NCBI GenBank assembly: GCA_963762215.1
Contig: CAVXKB010000013.1
Location: 34,141 to 98,140 of the forward strand
Length of the DNA: 64,000 bases
Source of the DNA: an uncultured Actinomycetota bacterium
GTDB lineage: Bacteria; Actinomycetota; Thermoleophilia; Gaiellales; Gaiellaceae
Reading direction: 5' to 3'
The translations under genes were made by a program, and so were the position numbers. A model generated the notes under the pieces. The model was not told the DNA's origin and searched no databases. It saw only the letters and a list, made by a program, of their open reading frames with translations. Of this stretch, positions 9,674 to 54,263 are shown in pieces (within the stretch, counting starts at the first letter, position 1; every line of letters begins with the position of its first letter).

Positions 9674-9746
9674 GGGGCGTTAGCTCAGCTGGGAGAGCGC
9701 CAGCTTTGCAAGCTGGAGGTCATCGGTTCGATCCCGATACGCTCCA
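9674..9746 (+). tRNA. tRNA-Ala: tRNA-Ala (anticodon UGC)
   Basis: Hand-folded 73-nt cloverleaf: acceptor GGGGCGT/ACGCTCC with the G3:U70 alanine identity pair, D arm GCTC-AGCTGGGA-GAGC, anticodon arm CCAGC-TTTGCAA-GCTGG, T arm ATCGG-TTCGATC-CCGAT. CCA is not encoded. Confidence 0.93.
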
Positions 9747-9893
9747 CTTCGAAAGGCCTTGGAAACAGGGTCTTTCTTATGCTCAAAGCCCGTGCGACAT
9801 ACGCGGAGTAGGGTCGTTGGCAAGTCCAGAGACGGGAAGGTCCAACCCAGTTCCTGAACCAAAGTCTCGGCAGACACTCGTACTGAAGGGGTC

Positions 9894-9950: not shown

Positions 9951-10017
9951 GTGAGGCGGCTACGACGGCGCCAAAGCAGACGAGTCGATGAAGGAGGGTT
10001 CTTGGCAGGCCCTCCGT

Positions 10018-10443
10018 CTAGGTTATTTTCAGGATGCCCTTCATCCCGCCTGCCGCGTGGCCGGGCACGGTGCAGAGGTACTCGTAGCTCCCGGGCTTCG
10101 CGACGGTCACGGATAGCGTCGCCGACTGGCCCTTCCCGAGCGCCGTTGTTCCCTTGCCGGTGCATGCGTTGGCGAGCGCGCCGGCCGAAGTCGCCTTCGT
10201 GGCGGTTGTGCAAAGCTTGAAATCGTGGGCGAGGCCCGACGCGCTTGCGTTAGTGACCTTGAATGTGATCGTGCCGTGCGGAACGGTCTTGGTCGAGAGG
10301 GTGAATGCGAACTCGGAGGGCTTGCCCGCCGAGACCGTGACCGTCTTTCCGGCCGCTTGACTGATATGGGCAAGAGCGGCAGGGGCCGTGCCGACCGCTG
10401 AGGCGGCAACGAATACGATCATCATGAAGGACCGGCGCGTCAT
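10018..10443 (-). CDS. Secreted type-1 (blue) copper protein, plastocyanin/azurin-like cupredoxin
   Basis: ORF trimmed to MTRRSFMMIVFVAASAVGTAPAALA (signal peptide). Upstream His in LAHDFKL. C-terminal ligand loop YLCTVPGHAAGGMKGIL (Cys-x4-His-x4-Met). Confidence 0.85.
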   Translation of the reverse strand: MTRRSFMMIVFVAASAVGTAPAALAHISQAAGKTVTVSAGKPSEFAFTLSTKTVPHGTITFKVTNASASGLAHDFKLCTTATKATSAGALANACTGKGTTALGKGQSATLSVTVAKPGSYEYLCTVPGHAAGGMKGILKIT

Positions 10444-10605
10444 CGGAACTCCCTTTCGTCGGTTTCTATGTGGATTGGGCTCCGCGCGGACCGTCTGGAT
10501 CGCCCCCTCGGGACCGCGCCCACAGGTCGGGGAGTGTCGCAAAGGCCCGCGATGTTCGCAAGGGGCACCTCGCCCCACAAGGTTAAGCGGCTGGTCGAGG
10601 AGCCT

Positions 10606-32300: not shown

Positions 32301-33152
32301 ATGTCGCGATCGCTGTTCGCGGCTGCAGCGGCGGTAGTGCTCGCGTGCACGCTTGGCAGCTGCGGGGGGAGCACCGATCCATTGCATGCCGCGGTCGCCG
32401 CGTCGAGTACTGCGATGAGCAAAACGGTGCTGGCGGATGTGACCTTGCAGCGGGTCAACGCGCTCGGCGCGCCGCGCAGGTCCCTTCACGGTCGCGGAGC
32501 GGTCGTCTTCGACAAAGGCGTCGGATACGAAAGGCTCGATCTTCCCGCTTTCAAGCAGCAGCCCGCAGCGCAGGAGTTCGTGGACCTGCTGCCCCAGAGC
32601 GTCTACTTCCTCCGCAGGGTCGCAGCAGGCACGGTGGCCTACAACGGCAAGAGCTGGGTGTCCGCGACGCTCACCGGGTCCGGGTCGGTGGACGGGATCG
32701 TTCCACGGTTCGTGCTCCAGGTCGAGAGTTTGACTCCGCAGTTCCTGCTCGACGAGATCGTCTGGGGCGGCAAGTCCGCCGTGCACGTGGGCAACCCGGT
32801 GATCGACCATGTGCCGCTGTCCGAATATCGCGTGACCATCGACCTTAAGCGAGCCTTGTCGGCGGCGACTGGTCCCTCGGCCGGCGCGATGAGGCTGGCG
32901 ATCAAGGACGAGCTCGCCGCCGCCGGATCGCGCCCCACGATGATCACCGTTTGGGTCGACGGCCCCGGGCGGGCTCATAGGTTGCGTGCCTCGGTGCCGG
33001 GCTCGGGCATCGGAACGACCTCCATGCTTCTGAACGGCTACGGAGCCACGCTCGACGCGAACCTGCCGCCTCCGTCGCAGATCCTCTCGATCGAGGCTCG
33101 GACGCCTGGGGGCAGAGACCAGCTCAGCTCATTCTGGCCCCTGGGCGGCTAG
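32301..33152 (+). CDS. Hypothetical lipoprotein
   Basis: MSRSLFAAAAAVVLACTLGSCGG (lipobox LGSC). 283 aa. No recognisable domain. Confidence 0.55.
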   Translation: MSRSLFAAAAAVVLACTLGSCGGSTDPLHAAVAASSTAMSKTVLADVTLQRVNALGAPRRSLHGRGAVVFDKGVGYERLDLPAFKQQPAAQEFVDLLPQSVYFLRRVAAGTVAYNGKSWVSATLTGSGSVDGIVPRFVLQVESLTPQFLLDEIVWGGKSAVHVGNPVIDHVPLSEYRVTIDLKRALSAATGPSAGAMRLAIKDELAAAGSRPTMITVWVDGPGRAHRLRASVPGSGIGTTSMLLNGYGATLDANLPPPSQILSIEARTPGGRDQLSSFWPLGG

Positions 33153-36804: not shown

Positions 36805-36973
36805 CGTCGCATTCTGAACGTCACCAACTCGATTGGTCCAAGGGAGCGATCGGGACTACCTTCCGAATTGTGTGTCCGCGGCAAGACCGGTTCGCTGTTC
36901 GCGTTCAAGTAAGCGCTGGCCGGCTCCGTTCGTCGTCGGCAGCTGCGCTCGCTATACGTCTCACTTGTGACCA

Positions 36974-37002
36974 TTGAAACTTGCCGATGTCGTGGGTAGT
37001 GT
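36974..37002 (+). promoter_or_regulatory. Candidate sigma-70-type promoter of iorA1B1 (TTGAAA-N17-TAGTGT), preceded by a conserved box
   Basis: -35 at 36974-36979 and -10 at 36997-37002. The 21-nt box ACGTCTCACTTGTGACCATTG (36956-36976) is identical upstream of the second iorA copy. Confidence 0.45.
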
Positions 37003-37093
37003 CCGCCCTGTCGCGGTTCGGGCTGGCTACTTGGCGCCGCGACGAGCTCCAGTGCGTTTCACCACCAATGAAACCTCAATGGAGGGTGGGCAT

Positions 37094-37606
37094 ATGGCTT
37101 CGAGCATCAAGATCAAGGTGAACGGGCTCACGCATGGCGTGACGGCCAGCCTCGACACTCCTCTCCTTTACGTCCTGCACAACGAGCTCCACCTGCATGG
37201 CCCGCGCTTCGGTTGCGGCCTAGCGCAGTGTGGCGCCTGCTCGGTGCTGCTCGACGGCAAGGAGATCCGCTCCTGCGTCACACCTGTGGCGGCAGTGAGC
37301 GGCAAGAACATCACGACCCTGGAAGGGCTGCCGGCATTGTGGGCGGCGCAGCGCGGTACCTCGGCTGCTGCCCCGGCTCTGCATCCGTTGCAGCAGGCGT
37401 GGATCGACGTTCAGGTGCCGCATTGCGGCTATTGCCAGAACGGCATGATGATTCAGGCTGCTGACCTGCTCGCGACGACGAAGAATCCGTCCGAGGACCA
37501 GATCCGCACGGCGATGAACGGGCATCTGTGCCGCTGCGGTACGTATCCGAGAATCCTGACCGCGATCCAGAAGGCCGCGGCAGTGATGGCAAAGGCAGGT
37601 GCGTGA
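37094..37606 (+). CDS. [2Fe-2S]-binding small subunit of an IorAB/aldehyde-oxidase-type molybdenum hydroxylase, copy 1
   Basis: GGAGGGTGGG RBS. Plant-type cluster GCGLAQCGACSV...C. Second cluster HCGYCQNG...CRCGTY. 170 aa. Confidence 0.9.
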   Translation: MASSIKIKVNGLTHGVTASLDTPLLYVLHNELHLHGPRFGCGLAQCGACSVLLDGKEIRSCVTPVAAVSGKNITTLEGLPALWAAQRGTSAAAPALHPLQQAWIDVQVPHCGYCQNGMMIQAADLLATTKNPSEDQIRTAMNGHLCRCGTYPRILTAIQKAAAVMAKAGA

Positions 37607-40017
37607 TGACAGGCCTCATCCCCGAGAAGGAATTCTCACGGAAGAGCTTCCTGAAGGGCGGCGGCGCGCTGATCGTCGGTATCAGCCTCGCCGGCAACGT
37701 CGGGAGCGCGAAGGCGGCGACAGGTATCGACCCGTTCGCGAGCCCTGGACCGGCCGACCCGAACTCGGTCGACTCGTTCATCTCGATTCATGCTGACAAC
37801 TCCGCCTCGCTCAACTCGGGCCGGATCAACCTCGGTCAGCAGTCCACGACCGGCCTCATGTTGATCGCAGCCGAAGAGCTCGACATGGACTTCAGCCAGT
37901 TCCGCCACATCGAGTTCGACACCGGCGGGGCTAATCCGTCCCCGAACACCGGCAACACCGGCGGCTCCACGTCGATCTCGCAGGCGGGCCCGCTGGTCCG
38001 CCGCGCGGCGGCCGAGGGGAAGCAGGCCCTGCTCGCGATGGCGTCGACAACCCTCGGCGTCCCGGTCGCGAACCTGTCGGTGGCCAAGGGCGTCGTCTCC
38101 GGCGGCGGCAAGACGATCACCTATGGGCAGCTCGTCGGCGACAAGCTGATGAAGGTCACGTTCGCGACGACCACCCTGAACACGGGTGTGTTCCCGGCGA
38201 AGAACCCGAGCCAGTACAAGCTGGTCGGGATCGCCCGCGTCCAGCACTACGACATCCCCGAGATCGTCACGGGCGTGCACACGTACGCGGCCAACGTCCG
38301 CGTGCCCGGCATGGTGCACGGCCGCGTCGTGCGGCCGCGCGGGCAGGGCGCGTACGGCGACGGCACGAACCCGGTTCCGCTCACGATCGACGCCGACTCC
38401 GTGAAGCACATCCCGGGCGTGCAGATCGTGCGTGTCGGCAACTTCGTCGCGGTCGTCGCGCCGAAGGAGTACGACGCGATCCAGGCCGCTTCGATCCTGA
38501 AGGTCAAGTGGTCGGATCCGCCGAAGATCGACCCGGTCGGCAACCTCTGGCTCGGCATGCGTCAACGTGACTCTGCGGGCCTCGCGCCGGCACGGATCGC
38601 GGCGCAGGGACCGACCACGCCGGGCCTCGCCGGTCAGCTCTCGAGCGTCGACGCCGCGATGGCGACGGCCGCGAAGACGTACGCCGGCACGTTCAAGTAC
38701 CACTACCAGATGCACGCCCCGATCGGGCCGAACGTCTCGGTCGCCGACGTGACCGCCAACAGCGCGATCATCTTCGGGCACGTGAAGAACGGCTATGGCG
38801 TCACGCGCTCGCAGGTCGCTGCAGCGCTGAACTCGGCAGCGCAGAAGCTCGGGCTGCCGAACACCTACGACCTGAGCCGTGTCCGCGTCGTCTACTACGA
38901 GGGCTCGAGCACGTTCGGCGGCGGTGCCGCACACGTCGACAACGACGAATGTGCAGCGGTCTGCTCGCTCGTCGTCGGCAAGCCCGTCCGCTTGCAGTGG
39001 ATGCGCTGGGACGAGCACGGTTGGGACAATTACGGCCCGGCCACGATGTGGGACGTCAAAGGCGGCATCGACGCCAACGGCAAGCTGGTCGCCTGGGACG
39101 CCACGAGCACCGGCATGGCGGCGTACGCGAAAACACCGACCGAGCAGCAGGTCGGACAGCCGATGTCCACCCCGGGCGCGGGTCCCGCCGACACCACCTA
39201 CTCGGGCACCCAGTACGACATCCCGAACCGGCGGATCATCGGCAAGACCGTGAACGTCCTGAACGGGTACTTCAAGACGAGCACGCTGCGGGCGCCCAAC
39301 GCGCCGCAGACCGTCTTCGCGAACGAGCAGGTGATCGACCAGCTCGCGTTCCTCGCCGGCCAGGATCCCTACCAGTTCCGGCTGAACAACATCAGCACGG
39401 CCCCGCTAGGGACAGGGGTTGGCACGCAGACCGCGAATGCGCTCCCCGGCCAGTGGCAGTGGCGCGACTCGCTCATCGCTGTTGCGAAAGCCGCCAACTG
39501 GACCCCGAGGGTCGCCAACTCGGTGAAGCAGACCGGCTCGATCCGCACCGGTCGCGGCATCGCGATGGGCGGGTTCGCCAACTCGCAGGCGGCGAACGTG
39601 GCCGACATCGAGGTCAACATCAAGACCGGCAAGATCACCGTCAAGCACACGTACGTCGCGGTGGTCGCCGGACTGATGGCCGCACTGAACCAGGCCGAGA
39701 GCAACATGACCGGCGCCCTGATCATGGGCGTCAGCCGGGCGCTGTACGAAGAGGTCACGTTCGACAGCGGCCGCGTCACGAGCCTCGACTGGGTGACCTA
39801 CCCGTTGCTGCGCTTCAAGGACCACCCCACCGCGACCACGGTGGTTGTTCAGCGGTTCGACCTCCAGTCGACCGGCAACGGGGAGCCGCCCACGGCGGCG
39901 GTCGCGGCGACGATCGCGAACGCGTTCTTCGACGCCACCGGCGTCCGTATCCACGAGGCGCCGATGACGCCGGCGAGGGTCCGGGCGACGCTTGCAGCTG
40001 CGGGCTTCACCGCGTAG
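37606..40017 (+). CDS. Molybdopterin-binding large subunit (IorB/aldehyde dehydrogenase beta-like) with Tat-like signal, copy 1
   Basis: ATG shares one nt with the iorA1 stop. N-terminus MTGLIPEKEFSRKSFLKGGGALIVG is a twin-Arg-like motif with R-K. C-terminus GNGEPPTAAVAATIANAFFDATGVRIHEAPMTP is typical of this subunit family. Confidence 0.88.
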   Translation: MTGLIPEKEFSRKSFLKGGGALIVGISLAGNVGSAKAATGIDPFASPGPADPNSVDSFISIHADNSASLNSGRINLGQQSTTGLMLIAAEELDMDFSQFRHIEFDTGGANPSPNTGNTGGSTSISQAGPLVRRAAAEGKQALLAMASTTLGVPVANLSVAKGVVSGGGKTITYGQLVGDKLMKVTFATTTLNTGVFPAKNPSQYKLVGIARVQHYDIPEIVTGVHTYAANVRVPGMVHGRVVRPRGQGAYGDGTNPVPLTIDADSVKHIPGVQIVRVGNFVAVVAPKEYDAIQAASILKVKWSDPPKIDPVGNLWLGMRQRDSAGLAPARIAAQGPTTPGLAGQLSSVDAAMATAAKTYAGTFKYHYQMHAPIGPNVSVADVTANSAIIFGHVKNGYGVTRSQVAAALNSAAQKLGLPNTYDLSRVRVVYYEGSSTFGGGAAHVDNDECAAVCSLVVGKPVRLQWMRWDEHGWDNYGPATMWDVKGGIDANGKLVAWDATSTGMAAYAKTPTEQQVGQPMSTPGAGPADTTYSGTQYDIPNRRIIGKTVNVLNGYFKTSTLRAPNAPQTVFANEQVIDQLAFLAGQDPYQFRLNNISTAPLGTGVGTQTANALPGQWQWRDSLIAVAKAANWTPRVANSVKQTGSIRTGRGIAMGGFANSQAANVADIEVNIKTGKITVKHTYVAVVAGLMAALNQAESNMTGALIMGVSRALYEEVTFDSGRVTSLDWVTYPLLRFKDHPTATTVVVQRFDLQSTGNGEPPTAAVAATIANAFFDATGVRIHEAPMTPARVRATLAAAGFTA

Positions 40018-40020
40018 TCG

Positions 40021-41129
40021 ATGAGGGTGCTGGCTGGGGGGACCTCCGGGTCCCCCCAAACCCTCATCTCCCTCGACTCCGATCAGGTCGCGCCCGAGCT
40101 TCTACCGGTCGAGGAGCTCGCCGACTGCGCACAGGCCGCGTTCGCGCACGACGGGAAGACAATCCTCTCCTACGGCTCCGGCGCCGGCTACGCAGCCTCT
40201 GCGGGAGCTGATCGGCGAGTGGTTCCGCGTCGATCCGTCGCGGGTGGTGCTGACACACGGGCAGCTTCACGGGCTCGCGACTGCTTGCCGGCCGCGTCGC
40301 GCGTGGACGCGGCGTGATGGTCGAGTACCCGATCCACGACCGGGCCGAGCGGGCGCTGCTCGCCGCAGGTGCGTCCCTGATCAGCACCCCGATCGGCGAG
40401 GACGGGATCGTCGTCGAGGAGCTCCAGGGCACGCTCGGCCAGTACGTGCGGCCGGCGATGGTCTACGTCGTTCCGAGCTTCCACAACCCGACCGGGTGGA
40501 CAACGCCGGGGGCCTCGCGCAAGCGTGTGGTCGACCTCGTGATCACTCAGAACCAGATCCAGACCGAGCAGATCCTGCTCGTCGAGGACGAGACATACGC
40601 GCTCACGCGCTTCGAGGGCGAGCGCATCCCCGCCATCTTCGACTACTCGGCCGGCCGGAGCGTGCACAGCTCTTCCTTCTCGGCCACGGTCGCTCCGGGG
40701 CTGCGTGTGGGCTATCTCATCCTGCCCGAGCCGCTCGCCGAGGAACTGACAGCCATCGCATCCGATAGCTACATCACCCCGGTGCTACTCGCACAGGCGA
40801 CCGTCTACGAGTTTCTCGCGCGCGGGGCGTTCGAGCCGCACCTGCTGCGGCTTCGGGACGGGCTGCGAGTTCGGCGTGACGCACTGCTCGCGGCACTCGC
40901 CAGGCACCTCCCCGATGCGACGTGGTCGGAGCCGGAGGGCGGTCTTTTCGTCTGGGTACAGCTTCCCGGCTCGCCCGACGGGCGCGAGGTGCTCAGCCGT
41001 GCGGAGGGGGTCGTCGCCGTCGACGGGACGCGCTTCGGCTCGGTCTCGAGCTCGCTGCGGCTCTCGTTCGGATACGCCGCCCCCGACGAGCTGGAAGCGG
41101 GAGTCGAAAGGCTCGCGGCGGCCCTGTAG
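40021..41129 (+). pseudogene. PLP-dependent aminotransferase (class I/II, MocR-C-terminal-like) with two frame breaks
   Basis: Frame 1 gives LISLDSDQVAPELLPVEELADCAQAAFAHDGKTILSYGSGAGY. Frame 2 gives PLRELIGEWFRVDPSRVVLTHGQLHGL. Frame 0 gives LLAGRVARGRGVMVEYPIHDRA...VVPSFHNPTGWT...SSSFSATVAPGLRVGYL. Breaks are near 40190-40199 and 40278-40281. Confidence 0.7.
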
Positions 41130-41894
41130 ATGGTGCGCAACGGCCTCATCGCCGGCATCGTCGCGGCTCTCGCTCTCGCCGCCGGCGCGCAAGGGGTGGT
41201 GTCGCAGACGATCTACGCCTACTTCGACGTCGACGGCGGCCTCCAGATCAGCTACGCCGACAGCTCGAAGGTCGGCAGCAATGTCCCACCGGGCACGTAC
41301 ACGATCAACCTGAACAACAACGGCGCCGACGACCTCGGCGTCGACCACATCTTCCACCTCTCCGGCCCCGGTGTCGACTACAAGGCCGCGAATGTCGACA
41401 CGACCGCGGTCTTCAGCGTCACGTTCCAGGCAGGCGCGACCTACCGCTTCTTCGACGACCTCAACCCGAAGATCAGCCAGACGATCCTCGCCACGACCGC
41501 TCCCTCGTCGACGCCAACCAATCCGCTGCCGCCCACGCCGGTCACCAGCTCGACAAAGGCGACTGCAGGCGGGATCGTGGGCTCACAGGCCGCGCCGCCC
41601 GCCCGACTTTCACGGGGAACGTTGACGGCGACCGTGAGCGCGTCCGGCAAGGTCACGCTCAGCTACCACGGTAAGGTCGTGAGCTCGCTCAAGTCCGGCC
41701 TCTACACCGTGTCCGTCACCGACTCGAGCAAGAACAGCGGCTTCGTCATCCAGCAGAGCCACAAGCTGGCGACCTCGGTCAGCACTGCGCCCTTCACCGG
41801 CAAGAAAAGCAAGAAACTCGATCTGACCAAGGGACAATGGTTCTTCTACCCGTCGTTCATCGGGCAGAAGACCTATTTCGTCGTCACGGGCTGA
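41130..41894 (+). CDS. Secreted tandem cupredoxin-like protein, family C (C1)
   Basis: Signal peptide. N-domain PPGTYTINLNNNGADDLGVDHIFHLSGPGVD...GATYRFFDD. Pro/Ser/Thr linker. C-domain GLYTVSVTDSSKNSGFVIQQ...KGQWFFYPSFIGQKTYFVVTG. Confidence 0.7.
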   Translation: MVRNGLIAGIVAALALAAGAQGVVSQTIYAYFDVDGGLQISYADSSKVGSNVPPGTYTINLNNNGADDLGVDHIFHLSGPGVDYKAANVDTTAVFSVTFQAGATYRFFDDLNPKISQTILATTAPSSTPTNPLPPTPVTSSTKATAGGIVGSQAAPPARLSRGTLTATVSASGKVTLSYHGKVVSSLKSGLYTVSVTDSSKNSGFVIQQSHKLATSVSTAPFTGKKSKKLDLTKGQWFFYPSFIGQKTYFVVTG

Positions 41895-41909
41895 GGGAAT
41901 AACCCGACA

Positions 41910-42707
41910 TCAGCCGACGACGGGCACCGTGTAGGTGCTCTTCGAGGCGCTCGGACCGAACGACCAGCGGCCGGCGGTCAGGTTCAGGGTCACGGTGCGC
42001 TTACCCACGAACGCCATCCCGGTGACGCTCACCGTCGCGCGCTTCCCCTTCACCGCGAACCCGCTCGACGAGCTGCGGTCGACGACCGAGATCGCGTATC
42101 GGCCGGCATTCAGGCTCGAAACGCTCTTGCCCTTGAAGGCGATCCTGAGCGAGCCCGCGGGCGTCACGACCCCTGTGAGCGTGCCGCGGAAGGGAGGAAT
42201 CGCCGAGCCGACGACGTCTTGCGAGGTCGGCTTCGTGCCGCTCTTCGAGGACGTCGACGACGAGCCGGTCGGGGTCGCGGCCCCGACGACGTCGGACGAC
42301 GTCCGGAATGTGTAGACGATCGACTGGGCGCGATCGATGTGCCAGGTGTAGGTCGCGTTCGGCAGGAAGTACGTCGGCAGCGAGTGCGTGTCGACCTCAC
42401 CGCCGAGCATGTCGTCCTGGATGTCCACGCCCGGGCCGCTAAGCTCGAACAGCGGCAGGTTGATGCACTCGCCCGGGCCGTTCAAGAGCACCGAGTAGTA
42501 GCCACCCGGGATCACGGTCGGTGCGCCACTCGTCGTTCCGAGCGGCACGCCGTTGAGCGCCGCCGTGACGACGCCGTTGGTGTTGAAGGTAACGACGATC
42601 GTCTGGGTCGCGGCAAGCCGCGACTCGGCGGCCGGGGCGATCAATGCACCTGCGACGAGGGCGCCTGCAACAGCCAGCAGCAGGGCCCGCGAAACCCTTA
42701 TCTCCAC
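41910..42707 (-). CDS. Secreted tandem cupredoxin-like protein, family C (C2)
   Basis: ORF trimmed to GTG 42707 (VEIRVSRALLLAVAGALVAGALIAPAAES). FELSGPGVD...ATYTWHID. Ser/Thr linker. GRYAISVVDRSSSSGFAV...AGRWSFGPS. Confidence 0.65.
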   Translation of the reverse strand: MEIRVSRALLLAVAGALVAGALIAPAAESRLAATQTIVVTFNTNGVVTAALNGVPLGTTSGAPTVIPGGYYSVLLNGPGECINLPLFELSGPGVDIQDDMLGGEVDTHSLPTYFLPNATYTWHIDRAQSIVYTFRTSSDVVGAATPTGSSSTSSKSGTKPTSQDVVGSAIPPFRGTLTGVVTPAGSLRIAFKGKSVSSLNAGRYAISVVDRSSSSGFAVKGKRATVSVTGMAFVGKRTVTLNLTAGRWSFGPSASKSTYTVPVVG

Positions 42708-42883
42708 CTGCCGAGGATAGCGCAGCCGGAGCCTTGCTCGAACAATTCGACACCCCTTGCGCATATCGCGACGGCCCGATGCGGCTCTTCGAAACGACCA
42801 TAGAGGGATGTCGAATCCCCAAATTCGTAACAACTGGCCGAACTTGGCTTGTCTAAACGGCCGAAACGTCTCACTTGTGACCA

Positions 42884-42912
42884 TTGCAACGGGCCGATGC
42901 CGTTTGTACAGT
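42884..42912 (+). promoter_or_regulatory. Candidate promoter of iorA2B2 (TTGCAA-N17-TACAGT), preceded by the same conserved box
   Basis: -35 at 42884-42889 and -10 at 42907-42912. The box ACGTCTCACTTGTGACCATTG at 42866-42886 is identical to the copy at 36956-36976. Confidence 0.45.
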
Positions 42913-43003
42913 CCCCAAGGTCGTCTCGGAAGAGGCTCATCGCCCAGTGCCGCGGCGACCTGCAGTGCACTGCACAAGCAAGCACTCCAATGGAGGGTGG
43001 AAT

Positions 43004-43516
43004 ATGGCAAACAGCATCAAGATCAAGGTGAACGGGCTCACGCACGGCGTGACCGCGAGCCTCGATACTCCGCTCCTGTACGTTCTGCACAACGAGCTCC
43101 ATCTGCATGGCCCGCGGTTCGGTTGCGGTCTGGCGCAGTGTGGCGCATGCTCGGTGCTGCTGGACGGGAAGGAGATCCGCTCGTGCGTGACCCCGGTCGC
43201 GGCGGTTAGCGGGAAGAACATCACTACCTTGGAAGGGCTGCCGGCATTGTGGGCGGCGCAGCGCGGTACCTCGGCTGCTGCTCCGGCCTTGCATCCGTTG
43301 CAGCAGGCATGGATCGACGTTCAGGTGCCGCATTGCGGCTACTGCCAGAACGGGATGATGATCCAGGCCGCCGACCTGCTCGCGACGACGAAGAACCCGT
43401 CCGAGGATCAGATCCGCACGGCAATGAACGGGCACCTCTGCCGTTGCGGGACCTATCCGAGAATCCTGACCGCGATCCAGAAGGCCGCGGCCGTGATGGC
43501 AAAGGCGGGTGCATAA
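43004..43516 (+). CDS. [2Fe-2S]-binding small subunit, copy 2 (protein identical to copy 1 except residue 3)
   Basis: Same RBS context (AATGGAGGGTGG). Same 170-aa sequence (MANSIK vs MASSIK). About 45 synonymous codon differences by hand count. Confidence 0.9.
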   Translation: MANSIKIKVNGLTHGVTASLDTPLLYVLHNELHLHGPRFGCGLAQCGACSVLLDGKEIRSCVTPVAAVSGKNITTLEGLPALWAAQRGTSAAAPALHPLQQAWIDVQVPHCGYCQNGMMIQAADLLATTKNPSEDQIRTAMNGHLCRCGTYPRILTAIQKAAAVMAKAGA

Positions 43517-43518
43517 CG

Positions 43519-45955
43519 ATGACCGGTCTGATGCATGAAAAGGAGTTCTCACGCAAGAGCTTCGTGAAGGCAGGCGGCGCACTCATCGTCGGCTTCAGCG
43601 CTCTTGGCGCTCTTGGAGCCGGCAAGGCCCAGGGCGCGACCGGCAACACGCCGTTCGCGTTGCGCGGCCCCGGCGACTTCCTGCCCGACCTGCAACGCGG
43701 TCGACTCATGGATCGCGGTGCGGGCGGACAACTCGATCATCGTCACGCACGGCGAGACGGAGCTCGGTCACGGCACCCCGACCGGCATCCTCATGCTCGT
43801 CGCCGAAGAGATGAACACGAACATGGATCAGATGATCTATGCGCACCCGGAGACGTGGCTCAACGCGACCGGCGGCGGCGGCGGCTCAGGCGGTATCTCG
43901 AGCCGCTCGACGCAGACCCGTGCGGCGGCTGCATACGCGAAGCAGGTGCTGCTCGGCCTCGCCTCGACGAAGCTCGGCGTCCCCGTTGCGAACCTCTCGG
44001 TCTCGGGCGGTGTCGTCACCGGCGGATCCGGCAGCGTGAAGTACGGCGACCTGCTCGGCGGGAAGCTGTTCAACTTCGAGATGCCGCTCGTTGCAGCCAG
44101 CACCTCGACAACGGCGACACAGCTTATTCCCGGCACGGGCATCACGAAGCCCGTCAGCCAGTACAGCGCTCGTCGGCAAGTCGGTCCAGCGGATCGACAT
44201 CCCGGCGAAGGTCAACGGCACCTACACCTACATCCACAACGTCCGCATCCCGAACATGCTCCATGCTCGTTCGGTGCGGCCGCGTGGCGCAGGCGCCAAC
44301 ACCTCGGTGAACCATCAGCCGCAGAGCGTCGACGCGACCTCGATCGCCCATATCCCGGGCGCTCAGGTCGTTCAGATCGCCAACTTCCTCGCCGTCGTCG
44401 CTCCTCGCGAGTACGACGCGATCCAGGCTGCAGCGCAGCTCAAGGTCGTGTGGAAGAACGATCCGAAGTTCACGCCCTCCGGGAACTACTGGTCGTGGAT
44501 GCGCCAGGCCGGCGACACGAACACCGTCAACCCGGCCCGGTACACCGCGGATACGGGCGGCGTCCCCGCCGCGCTCGCCTCGGCAGCGCACAAGGTGACG
44601 GCGACCTACCGCTACCACTACAACAACTTCGTCCCGATCGGCCCGCACGCGGCTGTCGCGGACATCAAGTCGAATAGTGGAATCGTCTACGTGCAGGGTC
44701 AGTCACTGCAGGGTCTCCCCCCGAACTTCGCCACCATGCTCGGCTCGCAGTTCACGCCGGGCTCGGTGCGCGTGATCTGGTACGAGGGTGCGAGCTCCTT
44801 CGGCGGCGGCCAGCAGGGTGAGGCCGGCGAGCAGGCTGCGATCATCTCGCAGTCGATCGGCAAGCCGGTGCGCCTCCAGTGGATGCGCTGGGATCAGCAC
44901 GGCTGGGACAGCTACGGCCCGTCCCACCAGTACGACGTAACGATGGGCTGCGATGCGAACGGCAAGATCACGGTCGCCGACTGGACTGCTTACGGCCAGG
45001 CCGGCTCCACGATCGACACCACCAAGGAGCTCCTTGGTACCGCCGTTTGGCCCGCAGCACCGGCAGCAGGCGGCCCGACGCCGTCCGACACCGGTGTCTA
45101 CGGTGCGACCGGCTACGGCCCGTCGTACATCTACCAGCGCGGGTTCTGGCCAAGACGCAGCCGCTGTACGGCGGCTCGCTGAAGATCAGTGCCCTTCGTG
45201 CTCCGAACGCTCCGCAGTCCTACTTCGCCAGCGAGCAGGTCGTGGACGAGCTCGCACACGCCGCGGGGATGGATCCGGTCGCGTTCCGCAGGCTGAACAT
45301 CGACGGCACGAGCACGCTCGGAGCCCGTTGGCTGGCGGCGCTGGACGCCGCCACGATCGCTGCAGGCTGGAAGCCGAAGGTGGCTGCCTCGAACCTGCAG
45401 AGCGGGAACGTCGTCACCGGACGCGGCCTCGGTATCGGGACGTTCGCGTCCAGCCAGTCGGTCGTCGTCGCCGACATCCAGGTGACGAAGAGCACCGGCA
45501 AGATCCTCGTCAAGCACCTCTACATCTCCCAGAACAACGGGATCACGATCAGCCCGTCGCTCGTCACGAACCAGATGAGCGGCGCGGCGATCCAGGGTCT
45601 CTCGCGGGCGATGTGGGAGATGCCGACCTGGAACAAGGACCGGGTGACGAGCCTCGACTGGGTCTCGTATCCGATCCTGCGCTTCGTCGAGGCCCCGAAG
45701 GTGACGCTGATCAACGCGCACCCGGGCGAGTACGTCACGGTGCCTCCGGGAGATATGAAACCGGACGTGAGCCAGGGCAACACGAACGCGTTCAACCAGG
45801 GCTGGTTGCTGACCGGTTCCGGCGAGCCGCCGTCCACGGCGGTCGGCTCGGCAGTCGCGAACGCCTTCTTCGACGCCACGGGTGCCCGCATCCGCCAGGC
45901 GCCGATGAGGCCTCCGGTTGTCAAGGGCGCGCTCGAGGCGGCAGGCGTCAAGTAA
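43519..45955 (+). pseudogene. Molybdopterin-binding large subunit, copy 2, interrupted by three 1-nt frame breaks
   Basis: Homology to copy 1 can be followed through four frames: frame 1 MTGLMHEKEFSRKSFVKAGGALIVG...GDFLPDL; frame 2 NAVDSWIAVRADNS...PVSQY; frame 0 ALVGKSVQRIDIPAKV...GPSYIYQR; frame 2 VLAKTQPLYGGSLKISALRAPNAPQ...GSGEPPSTAVGSAVANAFFDATGARIRQAPM. Breaks are near 43693, 44163-44166 and 45137-45141. Confidence 0.75.
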
Positions 45956-45983
45956 ATCCGGACGCTCTGCTTCGACGTAATCG

Positions 45984-46017
45984 GGGAAGGGCCTGGAAAC
46001 AGGCCCTTCCCACTTTT
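45984..46017 (+). terminator. Rho-independent terminator after iorB2
   Basis: GGGAAGGGCCTG-gaaa-CAGGCCCTTCCC followed by ACTTTTC, 29 nt after the stop at 45955. Confidence 0.75.
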
Positions 46018-46048
46018 CGAGACATATGGCAGGATGGGGGGTGTCCCG

Positions 46049-46891
46049 ATGGCTGTTCGTACCAGGCGTTATTCGGTTCTGATCGCTGTGTTTGCCTTCG
46101 CCGCGGTGGTATTGCCGAGCGGCTATGCAGCGCGGGCTGCGGGCGGCCTCCCGACGCTCTACGTGAGCTACAACATGAACTGCATGTTCGCCGTGACCGA
46201 CGACAGCGGCAAGTCGGTCACGACGATCCCGCCCGGCACCTACCAGGTTCAGATCACGACGCCGGTCGTCTTCGCCGACGTCGACCTGTCCGGGATCTAC
46301 GACATGACGGCGTGCCAGAGCTTCGTGCAGTTCCAGATCACCGGGCCCGGAGTCAACATCTCGACGACGCTGCAGGACGGGGACGAGGACTACGGCGTGT
46401 ACAGCGCGACGTTCAAGCCCGGCTCGACCTACACCGCATCCGATCTCAATCAGCCGTCGGTCGCAAAGCTCGTGTTCCAGACCGCCGCGTCGGGCTCTCC
46501 GGTGATCCCGACGAGCCCGGTCACGGGCAGCACGACGGGGAAGGGCTCGTCACAGTCGGACCTGATCGGCTCCAAGAGCAACACCGGTTCCTCGGCCGCG
46601 ACGCTCTCGCGGGGGACGCTGACGGCGTCCGTAAGCGCGGTGGGCAAGGTCACGCTGAGCTACCAGGGCCGGCTCGTGAGCTCGCTCAAGGCCGGTCTCT
46701 ACACGGTGTCCGTCACCGACTCGAGCAAGAAGAGCGGCTTCGTCATCCAGCAGAGCCACAAGCTGGCGACCTCGGTCAGCACGGCGCCGTTCACGGGCAA
46801 GAAAAGCAAGACCCTCGATTTGAGCAAGGGCCAATGGTTCTTCTACCCGTCATTCATCGGGCAGAAGACGTATTTCATCGTCACGGGATGA
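46049..46891 (+). CDS. Secreted tandem cupredoxin-like protein, family C (C3)
   Basis: Signal peptide MAVRTRRYSVLIAVFAFAAVVLPSGYAARA. FQITGPGVN...GSTYTASDLNQPS. Linker. The C-domain is nearly identical to C1 (GLYTVSVTDSSKKSGFVIQQSHKLATSVSTAPFTGKKSK...GQWFFYPSFIGQKTYFIVTG). Confidence 0.7.
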   Translation: MAVRTRRYSVLIAVFAFAAVVLPSGYAARAAGGLPTLYVSYNMNCMFAVTDDSGKSVTTIPPGTYQVQITTPVVFADVDLSGIYDMTACQSFVQFQITGPGVNISTTLQDGDEDYGVYSATFKPGSTYTASDLNQPSVAKLVFQTAASGSPVIPTSPVTGSTTGKGSSQSDLIGSKSNTGSSAATLSRGTLTASVSAVGKVTLSYQGRLVSSLKAGLYTVSVTDSSKKSGFVIQQSHKLATSVSTAPFTGKKSKTLDLSKGQWFFYPSFIGQKTYFIVTG

Positions 46892-46969
46892 GGAAAAGAG
46901 TCCCCTCCGGGCGCAGACATCGACGCCCGCCAGAGCTACAATCGAAGAGATTCTGACAGGGAGGTTGTC

Positions 46970-47803
46970 GTGAGGTCGTTTCGCATTCGCAGTCTGTGGG
47001 GCCTGGTAGCAGCGCTGGCGGTAGCAGCGATCCTTGTGCCCATCGGAAGCTCGAAGACGGCGATGCATGCGGGGGTTCCGACGATCTACGTGCAGTACGC
47101 GATGAACTGCACGTTCTCGTTCGTCGACGACAGCGGCCACCCGATCACGTCGATCGCGCCCGGCACCTACGAGGTCGAGGTCTCGACGCCGATCATGTTC
47201 AAGCTCGTCGACACGCTCAATCAGGCTCCGGGCGACTTCACCGGCTGCAGGGGCTGGGTCCAGTTCCAGATGACGGGCCCCGGCGTCAACCTCTCGACCA
47301 CGCTCGACACGGGCTGCGACAGCAATTACCTGCTCCCGGAGACGACCTTCAAGGCCGGTCAGACCTACAACGCGGTCGACCTGAACCAGCCGAGCGTCGC
47401 GCACGCCACGCTCACCGTCCTGAACGCGGGGCAGCTGCCGAGCCCGACGAGCCCGTACGGCACCGGCACCGGCAAGGGCTCGACCTCGCAGGACATCGTC
47501 GGGTCGCTGCAGCCGAAGACGAAGGTCAAGGCGACGCTGACGGGCTCCCTGAGCTCCACCGGCGCCCTCGTCCTGAAGACCGGCGGGAAGACGATCTCGA
47601 CGCTCACGCCGGGTCGCTACCGGTTCGTGATCACCGACAAGGATCCGAAGGCAGGGTTCATGCTCGCCGGCGGCAAGGTGACCAAGACGCTGTCGGCCTC
47701 GGGCTTCGTCGGCAGGCACACGACGCTCGTTACGCTGACGGCAGGACACTGGACGTATTCCGCCAGTCCTGGCAAGGGATACTCCTTCACCGTCTCCGGC
47801 TGA
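46970..47803 (+). CDS. Secreted tandem cupredoxin-like protein, family C (C4)
   Basis: GTG start with signal peptide. FQMTGPGVN...GQTYNAVDLNQPS. Linker. GRYRFVITDKDPKAGFML...AGHWTYSASPGKGYSFTVSG. Confidence 0.7.
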   Translation: MRSFRIRSLWGLVAALAVAAILVPIGSSKTAMHAGVPTIYVQYAMNCTFSFVDDSGHPITSIAPGTYEVEVSTPIMFKLVDTLNQAPGDFTGCRGWVQFQMTGPGVNLSTTLDTGCDSNYLLPETTFKAGQTYNAVDLNQPSVAHATLTVLNAGQLPSPTSPYGTGTGKGSTSQDIVGSLQPKTKVKATLTGSLSSTGALVLKTGGKTISTLTPGRYRFVITDKDPKAGFMLAGGKVTKTLSASGFVGRHTTLVTLTAGHWTYSASPGKGYSFTVSG

Positions 47804-53423: not shown

Positions 53424-54263
53424 TCAGGAAACCGTGAAGACGTGCTTGCCCGACGGCGTGATGAACGTCCACTTGCCGGTGGTCAGCTTCAGGTTGACCG
53501 TGTGCTTGCCGACGAACGAGGCGCTCGTGATCGTGACGGTGGCGTGCGTCGGCTTCTGAACCGCGAAGCCGGTCTTCTTGCTGCCGTCGAGCACCGAGAT
53601 CTTGTACGTCCCGGTCTTGAGCGCCGTGACGGTCTTCCCCTTGAAGGTGAAGGTCACGCCGCCGCCGGAAGTGATCGTCGCGGCCAGAGTCCCCGCAGTC
53701 TTGATGCCGGTGCTGAGGCCGCCGCCGTTCGAGGTCGTTCCGCCGCCACCGTTCGAGGTCGTCCCGCCGCCGCCGCTCGAGGTTGTCCCGCCGCCGCCGC
53801 TCGAGGTGCCTCCGCCGCCGGCTGCCGTCCCGGACGTCTGGAACGTGCCCCACATGAAGTCGGGGTGATTGTCGCACTGGAACCTGTAGCTCTGTCCCGG
53901 CTGGAGCGTCACGGACCAGGTCGGTGTCGACACACCACCGATGTCCGTCGACTGGTCGACCCCGGGCCCGGAAAGGTGGAAGTTGTGCTCGGTCGCGTCG
54001 TCGAGCACGCTGATCGAGTACGTGCCGGGCGGGATGACGAGCGGCACTGCCGTCTGGCCGCCGACCGCGGAGCCGTCGGCGAACTTGAGCCCGATCGAGT
54101 CGTCCTCGTGGACGAACGCGTTCATGTTCTGCGAGACAGCCGCATGCCCCCGACCGGCGATCACCAGGCCTGCCGTCAATCCGAGAACGACGACGCTCGC
54201 AAACAAGGCTACAAGGCTGTTTCCCGGGATTCTGCGCTGGATCGACGACATATTTGCTGACAC
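53424..54263 (-). CDS. Secreted tandem cupredoxin-like protein, family C (C5), with intact type-1 copper ligand set
   Basis: Anchor/signal LVALFASVVVLGLTAGLVIAG. TEHNFHLSGPGVD...SYRFQCDNHPDFMWGTF (Cys-x2-His-x4-Met at 53853-53876). Gly-rich repeat linker. C-domain GTYKISVLDGSKKTGFAV...TGKWTFITPSGKHVFTVS. Confidence 0.75.
   Translation of the reverse strand: MSANMSSIQRRIPGNSLVALFASVVVLGLTAGLVIAGRGHAAVSQNMNAFVHEDDSIGLKFADGSAVGGQTAVPLVIPPGTYSISVLDDATEHNFHLSGPGVDQSTDIGGVSTPTWSVTLQPGQSYRFQCDNHPDFMWGTFQTSGTAAGGGGTSSGGGGTTSSGGGGTTSNGGGGTTSNGGGLSTGIKTAGTLAATITSGGGVTFTFKGKTVTALKTGTYKISVLDGSKKTGFAVQKPTHATVTITSASFVGKHTVNLKLTTGKWTFITPSGKHVFTVS
53718..53813 (-). repeat. Four tandem 24-nt units inside the C5 linker
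   Basis: On the + strand: GCCGCCGCCGTTCGAGGTCGTTCC / GCCGCCACCGTTCGAGGTCGTCCC / GCCGCCGCCGCTCGAGGTTGTCCC / GCCGCCGCCGCTCGAGGTGCCTCC. These encode GGGGT(T/S)S(S/N) units on the - strand. Confidence 0.85.

Follow-up and report, generated by a model that had tools for sequence, protein, structure and literature searches.

Near-identical iron-sulfur subunits beside old, divergent large subunits: probable concerted evolution of iorA in two IorAB-type operons of an uncultured actinobacterium

Two IorAB-type operons and what they encode

The window analyzed here, a 64,000-nt stretch of contig CAVXKB010000013.1 (67% G+C), contains two IorAB-type operons, both on the + strand and 5.9 kb apart, each with a gene for an iron-sulfur small subunit (iorA), a gene for a molybdopterin-binding large subunit (iorB) and downstream genes that include members of an uncharacterized family, here called family C. 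The subject of this work is the iorA pair, two copies that encode almost the same protein next to iorB genes of different old paralog types. For comparison, species-representative genomes were scanned with IorA1, which returned 77 loci (designated by L-numbers such as L003 or L047) in Gaiellaceae/Thermoleophilia-type metagenome-assembled genomes (MAGs), mainly Microflora Danica Nanopore MAGs, at protein identities of 86-100%. The iorA matches number 100, from 26 MAGs and the window, with up to 13 in a single genome within the retrieved loci; 78 intact iorA genes were extracted, and for 52 of these an intact downstream iorB was extracted as well. The two operons and their immediate neighbors are made up as follows.

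36956-37093, + strand: upstream block of operon 1, with the motif CTCACTTGTGACCATTG, the 5' untranslated region and a GGAGG ribosome-binding site
37094-37606, + strand: iorA1, [2Fe-2S] small subunit of the aldehyde-oxidase/xanthine-dehydrogenase family, 170 aa; the unit that appears homogenized
37606-40017, + strand: iorB1, molybdopterin-binding large subunit, 803 aa, intact, with a Tat-like FSRKSFLK
40021-41129, + strand: gene resembling pyridoxal phosphate (PLP)-dependent aminotransferases, in operon 1 only; split in the window into two frames, 40021-40317 and 40314-41129
41130-41894, + strand: C1, secreted, uncharacterized two-domain protein of family C; a second high-identity block covers its last ~96 codons (41607-41894)
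41910-42705, - strand: a fourth family C gene, convergent with C1; its L003 ortholog has 88% nt identity
42866-43003, + strand: upstream block of operon 2; putative promoter elements TTGCAA (-35, 42884-42889) and TACAGT (-10, 42907-42912)
43004-43516, + strand: iorA2, [2Fe-2S] small subunit, 170 aa, with N3 in place of S3
43519-45955, + strand: iorB2, large subunit of a different old paralog type; frame interrupted by three 1-nt indels
46034-46891, + strand: C2, family C; the 3' block of C1 probably derives from its 3' end (46604-46891)
46970-47803, + strand: C3, family C paralog whose N-terminal domain is ~50% identical to that of C2

The start of iorB1 overlaps the stop codon of iorA1. IorA matches Pfam Fer2_2 (PF01799, E 6.6e-25) and Fer2 (PF00111), its translation showing the cysteine motifs CGLAQCGACSV...C and CGYCQNG...CRCG, and IorB matches MoCoBD_1 and MoCoBD_2 above cut-off. 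For both subunits the best solved relative is PDB 8GY3 (IorA with 8GY3_B, E 2.5e-43; IorB with 8GY3_C, E 2.2e-43); because the NCBIfam matches to IorB all fall below their equivalog cut-offs, no specific enzyme name applies. No match to a flavin adenine dinucleotide (FAD)-binding domain was obtained in the operon open reading frames (ORFs) other than iorA and iorB, that is, in the aminotransferase-like and family C genes, and neither operon has a cytochrome c gene. On domain content, both operons are thus classed as the two-subunit IorAB type of the xanthine-oxidase/aldehyde-oxidase family, without an FAD subunit. The membrane-bound aldehyde dehydrogenase AldFGH (8GY3) and the IorAB isoquinoline 1-oxidoreductase type share this composition: two [2Fe-2S] clusters in the small subunit, the molybdopterin in the large one, and no FAD subunit. 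Unlike AldFGH, the window operons have no cytochrome c subunit, their neighbor being instead an uncharacterized secreted protein of two beta-sandwiches. IorB paralogs at 40-50% identity suggest that many substrates may be served.

Both operons are best explained as encoding periplasmic or extracytoplasmic molybdoenzymes. The IorB N-termini (37633-37656 and 43546-43569) carry S-R-K-S-F-(L/V)-K, resembling a twin-arginine translocation (Tat) motif, then a hydrophobic GGGALIVG and then AKA or AQG. That both large subunits begin with FSRKSF(L/V)K, with R-K and not R-R, had already been read correctly in the initial annotation, and among the 52 intact IorB the second arginine is most often replaced: K stands there in 31 and R in 13, T, Q, G and S also occur, and among those with a scorable motif the residue is other than R in 35 of the 52. 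PaoABC of E. coli is periplasmic and is exported folded via the Tat pathway, its Tat signal sitting on the small subunit. It belongs to the xanthine-oxidase family as well, and its iron-sulfur and molybdenum subunits (5G5G) both match those of the window. There are two differences: (i), PaoABC has an FAD subunit (the third 5G5G chain is named FAD-binding), which the window operons lack; (ii), the window operons have their Tat-like signal on the large subunit, usually with lysine for the second arginine.

Divergence of iorA and iorB in the window and in related genomes

The two iorA genes are co-linear over their full 513 nt. Of these, 49 nt differ, in 47 codons; the differences are spread gene-wide, with 44 at third positions, and S3N is the sole difference between the proteins. 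With the Nei-Gojobori method (NG86), the rates of synonymous and non-synonymous divergence are dS 0.495 and dN 0.0059, giving omega (dN/dS) 0.012. The initial description of two 170-aa proteins that differ only at residue 3, with about 45 synonymous codon changes scattered along the gene, is therefore accurate, with 47 differing codons as the exact count. The first block of high similarity starts at ~37089 with ~90% identity, stays high to ~37685 and then falls sharply to 50-65%. The part of it that extends past iorA1 corresponds to the first ~27 iorB codons, where the proportion of synonymous differences (pS) has already reached 0.58; given this high silent divergence, these codons are similar because the signal peptide is conserved. 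Further on, IorB1 and IorB2 are 40-44% identical when aligned locally and 49.5% when aligned globally, in keeping with the earlier estimate by eye that they share roughly half of their residues (40-49% on alignment). At four-fold degenerate sites, the iorA pair differs at 35 of 95 (0.37) and the iorB core at 125 of 231 (0.54; Fisher p = 0.005).

Comparison with other genomes shows that the two iorA copies do not follow their iorB partners. Orthologs of IorB1 are found at L047 (81% aa identity), L053 (75%) and L003, and intact orthologs of iorB2 at L019, L028, L022 and L005 (73-76% nt identity). Measured against the iorA genes that stand beside IorB1 orthologs in other genomes, iorA1 differs by 89-98 nt and 15-19 aa; taking either window copy against those of L047 and L053, the range is 87-98 nt and 15-20 aa. 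Against the iorA genes beside IorB2 orthologs (L019, L028, L022), either copy differs by 58-78 nt and 6-8 aa, and IorA2 itself by 6-7 aa. The window copies thus group together against both ortholog sets, a topological discordance that contradicts the IorB relationships and that selection alone would not produce.

This discordance is found throughout the family. Medians for pairs of operons, sorted by genome and by IorB identity, are as follows.

Same genome, IorB 45-55% identical: IorA 98.2% aa identity; four-fold difference 0.27 (0.00-0.57) in iorA and 0.455 in iorB
Different genomes, IorB 45-55% identical: IorA 91.2% aa identity; four-fold difference 0.45 in iorA and 0.486 in iorB
Different genomes, IorB 75-85% identical (orthologous operons): IorA 94.7% aa identity; four-fold difference 0.456 in iorA and 0.432 in iorB

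When genome labels were shuffled, none of 2000 permutations reached the observed within-genome similarity of iorA. For 28 of the 44 copies the closest iorA belongs to the same genome, where chance would give 4.5, and for IorB this holds in 15 of 44; in 36 of the 44, the copy with the nearest iorA is not the copy with the nearest IorB. Recombination was assessed by these nearest-neighbor and label-permutation tests. Boundaries are sharp across the family as well: the within-genome excess of third-position identity extends through the whole of iorA and into iorB for only about 30 alignment columns, past which point within-genome and between-genome values are equal. A recent event is seen in the MAG CAVWUL, where L023 and L021 are 100% identical in DNA over ~9995-10513, which is the iorA coding sequence (CDS), with flanks at 35-50% and IorB at 46%; three further pairs have an iorA four-fold difference of 0.11-0.12 beside IorB at ~50%. 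The initial annotation had named, as a finding that would count against its reading, that IorA pairs of this kind are common among ordinary paralogs; in this family such pairs are indeed the norm, so that the window pair is not special. In some relatives three or four iorAB operons follow one another in tandem at intervals of ~3.2-3.7 kb (L060 349-10510, L010 2101-13664, L059 6905-16867).

Protein constraint on IorA is also evident. Among 13 distinct iorA DNAs whose products lie within 3 aa of IorA1, the median pair is 41 nt and 1 aa apart, and 22 pairs encode the identical protein from DNAs that differ at 14-53 nt. The exact IorA1 protein occurs in 56 blocks of the contig collection and the exact IorA2 protein in 41, and the neighboring genes differ among the six places listed for each; the window itself is not among the contigs returned. 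Neither IorB1 nor C2 has an exact protein match on record. Strong purifying selection at a dN/dS of about 0.01, which had been suggested from a rough count, is supported by the omega of the window pair and by these identical-protein pairs.

A second block of similarity joins the 3' ends of C1 and C2 (41607-41899 and 46604-46896; 89.1% over 293 nt, ungapped). Its presence had been noticed from the start, and its dimensions needed correction: it covers ~96 codons, not ~85, and its identity is below the ~91% first given. Over these 96-97 codons dS is 0.38, dN 0.065 and omega 0.17, with 85 of 95 residues identical and a four-fold difference of 0.34; dS over the rest of the gene is 0.87. Since its omega is ordinary and its silent divergence shallow, this block is similar because it is recent. 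The term protein-identical flanks, under which both blocks had been brought together, thus suits the iorA side, S3N aside, and does not suit the second flank.

Gene conversion, selection and competing explanations

We propose that gene conversion of iorA between operons, combined with very strong purifying selection, explains both the window pair and the pattern in the family, and we give this a probability of about 0.8. The electron-transfer subunit IorA would be held by purifying selection at an omega of ~0.01 in the clade, and its copies within a genome would be homogenized through conversion between operons, in tracts limited to roughly the iorA CDS and the first iorB codons. Deeper in iorB the paralogs would have diverged too far for pairing, and substrate specificity is probably what keeps them distinct. 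As an outcome, iorA would evolve in concert within a genome, and iorB and the downstream genes would persist as old independent lineages. The sequence statistics, the topological discordance, the pattern across the family and the sharp tract ends are shown directly; homologous recombination or gene conversion as the molecular mechanism, the direction of transfer and the reason for the constraint on IorA are inferred. In the window itself, the last homogenization is old, judging from a dS of ~0.5, and a single replacement has survived since; purifying selection would account for the near-identity of the proteins over that time.

Several observations weigh against this proposal. The four-fold difference of the window pair (0.37) is only marginally below the ceiling of 0.43-0.45 seen for iorA between genomes, which means that the last homogenization must be old and that for this pair dS by itself does not make the case for conversion, which rests on replacements, on total nt differences and on what is seen across the family. 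In the close relatives L082 (94% nt identity to the window), L078 and L003 (~90%), the positional orthologs of iorA1 differ from it by 25-30 nt and are nearer to it than iorA2 is, so that no conversion can have occurred since those splits. Most of the genomes compared are Nanopore MAGs; short-read MAGs show the same direction within and between genomes (4 versus 19 aa differences, four-fold 0.40 versus 0.49), with a weaker four-fold signal that comes from 13 pairs only. A lineage-specific codon preference could also add a little to the similarity within genomes (the effect is 0.03 in iorB).

The marginal position of the pair below the ceiling, where the difference is not significant, is what would be expected if purifying selection acted by itself, with iorA copies as old as the iorB copies that never exchanged and with silent sites resting at a low ceiling set by codon bias. 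The omega of ~0.012 and the 22 identical-protein pairs at 14-53 nt among the 13 iorA DNAs are likewise compatible with this explanation, which nevertheless predicts that IorA1 should be nearest to the IorA of IorB1 orthologs, when it is in fact 1 aa from IorA2 and 15-19 aa from those. Neither would selection group iorA by genome at replacement and four-fold sites in a family whose iorB genes do not group that way, place identical iorA DNA beside IorB proteins at 46% identity, or account for the second block with its omega of 0.17 and shallow dS; we thus consider it very improbable that selection did this unaided. It is also improbable that the operon was duplicated at a depth of dS ~0.5 and that iorB and the 5' part of the C gene were then replaced from a divergent donor through crossovers in the flanks, which is the cassette-like core exchange put forward in the initial annotation. 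The similar silent depth of the two blocks (four-fold 0.37 and 0.34; dS 0.49 and 0.38) and their position at the edges of the unit would suit such an event, but the polarity is wrong: each core has its own old gene order that other genomes conserve, iorB1-aminotransferase-C1 in L047, L003 and L078, and iorB2 followed by C2-like and C3-like genes in L066, L028 and L019, and it is iorA that groups by genome. In L003 and L078, moreover, operon 1 is ~90% identical to that of the window and the C-terminal domain of C1 is different, so that a flank changed and not the core; across the family only iorA is homogenized, even between contigs that have no common right flank, and in the window the repeats are unequally spaced (5910 versus 4997 nt). 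On this synteny, the flanks were overwritten and the cores were not swapped.

An origin of the near-identical iorA in the assembly itself, by repeat collapse, chimeric joins or cross-polishing, might be suspected, as the relatives are Nanopore metagenome contigs rich in indels in genes of all kinds, assembled in their source study with Flye and one round of Medaka polishing (PMC12313526). We find this scarcely credible: collapse or cross-polishing does not produce 49 evenly spread and almost purely synonymous differences, the two-operon arrangement is also present in the independent contig L082 at 94% identity, and the pattern is seen again in over 20 independent MAGs, short-read assemblies included.

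The most likely origin of the second block is a separate conversion patch that ran from C2 to C1 before the window and L082 split. The L003/L078 ortholog of C1 is ~90% identical to it up to window position 41606 and then continues into an unrelated C-terminal domain (the N-terminal part of C1 is 85% identical to the L003 ortholog), and the C1 of L082 has the C2-like version. The direction would follow from a single observation, namely that the C-terminus of C2 matches the C2 ortholog of L028: the nearest cross-genome relatives of this domain include L028, where the match lies in a gene with a C2-type N-terminal domain. Outgroups did not resolve the polarity of the C1 replacement, as the C-terminal domains of the L003 and L047 orthologs differ from that of the window and from each other. 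A C-terminal replacement in the L003 lineage is the less likely alternative. More generally, it seems that the C-terminal domain of family C is either exchanged between orthologs or diverges among them at a very high rate.

Why IorA should be so constrained may be explained by a shared partner, to which the initial annotation had suggested that both window copies might dock. We hypothesize, tentatively and as an unlikely though by no means negligible possibility, that IorA is kept uniform by one interface common to dozens of functionally different molybdoenzymes of a single cell, which could be an electron acceptor or an assembly and Tat-export route, and that selection, in addition to passive recombination, spreads replacements through short conversion patches. 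At equal silent divergence (four-fold 0.30-0.45), same-genome pairs are a median of 3 aa apart and different-genome pairs 10 aa, a comparison confounded by silent-site saturation; fewer replacements within genomes would be a weak hint in favor of a shared partner.

Concerted evolution of bacterial duplicates by gene conversion has its classic example in tufA/tufB of Salmonella and E. coli. The rRNA operons are another case (PMC8022953). In those systems as in iorA, paralogs within a genome are closer than orthologs between genomes, tract ends are sharp and the genes are constrained and recombination-competent; the window pair is, in this sense, a new example of a known process. What differs is that the iorA family has dozens of copies and that one gene of a two-gene operon is homogenized, its translationally coupled iorB diverging to 40-50% identity, and that many iorA pairs, including that of the window, have long remained unconverted (dS ~0.5). 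Gene conversion also keeps small-subunit copies uniform in plant rbcS (PMC4166922, PMC7743682); there the genes are nuclear genes of a eukaryote and work with a single type of large subunit, whereas here each IorA copy has a different IorB. We found no literature on an IorAB expansion in Gaiellales or on concerted evolution of molybdoenzyme small subunits. The iorA genes would thus offer a natural instance of concerted evolution below the operon level, in which the boundary of homogenization is also the boundary between a constrained and a diversifying module. In practice, operon orthology in these genomes cannot be judged from iorA-type small subunits. IorAB-type operons have undergone a very large, undescribed expansion in uncultured soil actinobacteria of Gaiellaceae-like type, in which every enzyme has a uniform electron-transfer module and an uncharacterized secreted protein is often encoded next to the operon. 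This suggests a wide range of oxidations that deliver their electrons to a common route, which makes the docking partner of IorA a concrete target.

Frame breaks, family C proteins and surroundings

The second operon had been described as having a broken core with three frame breaks. Exactly three are present, all 1-nt indels relative to the four intact orthologs (+1 at ~43693, +1 at ~44166 and -1 at ~45139, CGGCGGG becoming CGCGGG), and once they are corrected iorB2 is an 811-aa ORF with no internal stop; it cannot be taken as a pseudogene. Where they can be judged the indels are private to the window, L082 lacking the one at 44166. A plot of the reading frame from G+C at third codon positions (GC3) was too noisy for the window and was replaced by a count of private indels against three relatives: in other blocks, where two or three relatives permit the test, window-private indels that are not multiples of 3 occur at ~0.6/kb. 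They include two +1 indels in the aminotransferase-like gene (~40194 and ~40280), and suggest a general background of frameshift-type errors in the window sequence. Other window-private coding indels of 1-2 nt were seen at ~6561, near which the GC3 frame signal also switches, and at ~50189. Related Nanopore contigs, which had one round of Medaka polishing, likewise carry such indels in genes of every kind, and in L003 iorB1 is broken and the aminotransferase ortholog is an intact ORF of 383 aa. The frame breaks of iorB2 are therefore probably long-read assembly noise. Decay of operon 2 in the window would be consistent with its history elsewhere, and this counts against assembly noise: L003 (14810-15720) and L078 lack window 42727-46903 (iorA2-iorB2-C2) and 46976-47701 (the body of C3) and retain the sequence between C2 and C3 together with the ~35 final codons of C3, and these surrounding remnants imply that operon 2 is ancestral and was deleted in that lineage. 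The aminotransferase-like product itself matches Pfam Aminotran_1_2 and an NCBIfam MocR-type aminotransferase domain.

Family C has 188 database relatives, all unnamed ("hypothetical") and with no Pfam domain, and by tblastn its genes stand just upstream or downstream of iorAB in many related loci. An AlphaFold model (mean predicted local distance difference test score, pLDDT, 75) consists of two beta-sandwich domains and a disordered Ser/Thr/Pro linker, and the best Foldseek matches are two-domain laccases of the cupredoxin fold, at low template modeling (TM) scores of 0.22-0.28. These matches prompted a reading as copper proteins, which we rejected: no histidine is conserved in the family, making a copper site unlikely. 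A weak relative of family C lies at window 53862-54191 on the - strand.

Upstream of operon 1, a putative promoter has its -35 element (TTGAAA) at 36974-36979 and, after a 17-nt spacer, its -10 element (TAGTGT) at 36997-37002. The block recurs before operon 2 (42866-42923, 79% identity), and the motif is kept before most of 92 iorA copies. The -35/-10 assignment in both blocks is putative and is drawn from this conservation; a simple sigma-70 scan flagged no promoter in the upstream block. No Rfam family matched the conserved 5' block, and a known RNA there, such as a riboswitch, was therefore rejected.

To the left of operon 1, ~27 kb of the window (9714-36955) are absent from L082, L078 and L003, where no more than 1.3-2 kb separate the iorA1 upstream block from the DNA ending at the tRNA-Ala (window 9674-9747). 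The right end of this insert (36955/36956) abuts the conserved iorA upstream motif. No convincing direct (attachment-site, att) repeat was found for the insert beside the tRNA-Ala, and no integrase among the ten ORFs scanned. It encodes three pyrroloquinoline quinone (PQQ)-dependent dehydrogenases, a MoxR AAA ATPase, a VWA protein and parts of an ATP-binding cassette (ABC) transporter. At 32627-32718, ARAGORN calls a 92-nt tRNA-Ala (cgc), when Rfam at its gathering threshold reports only the tRNA at 9674-9746; this 92-nt prediction is probably spurious, or else an unusual gene.

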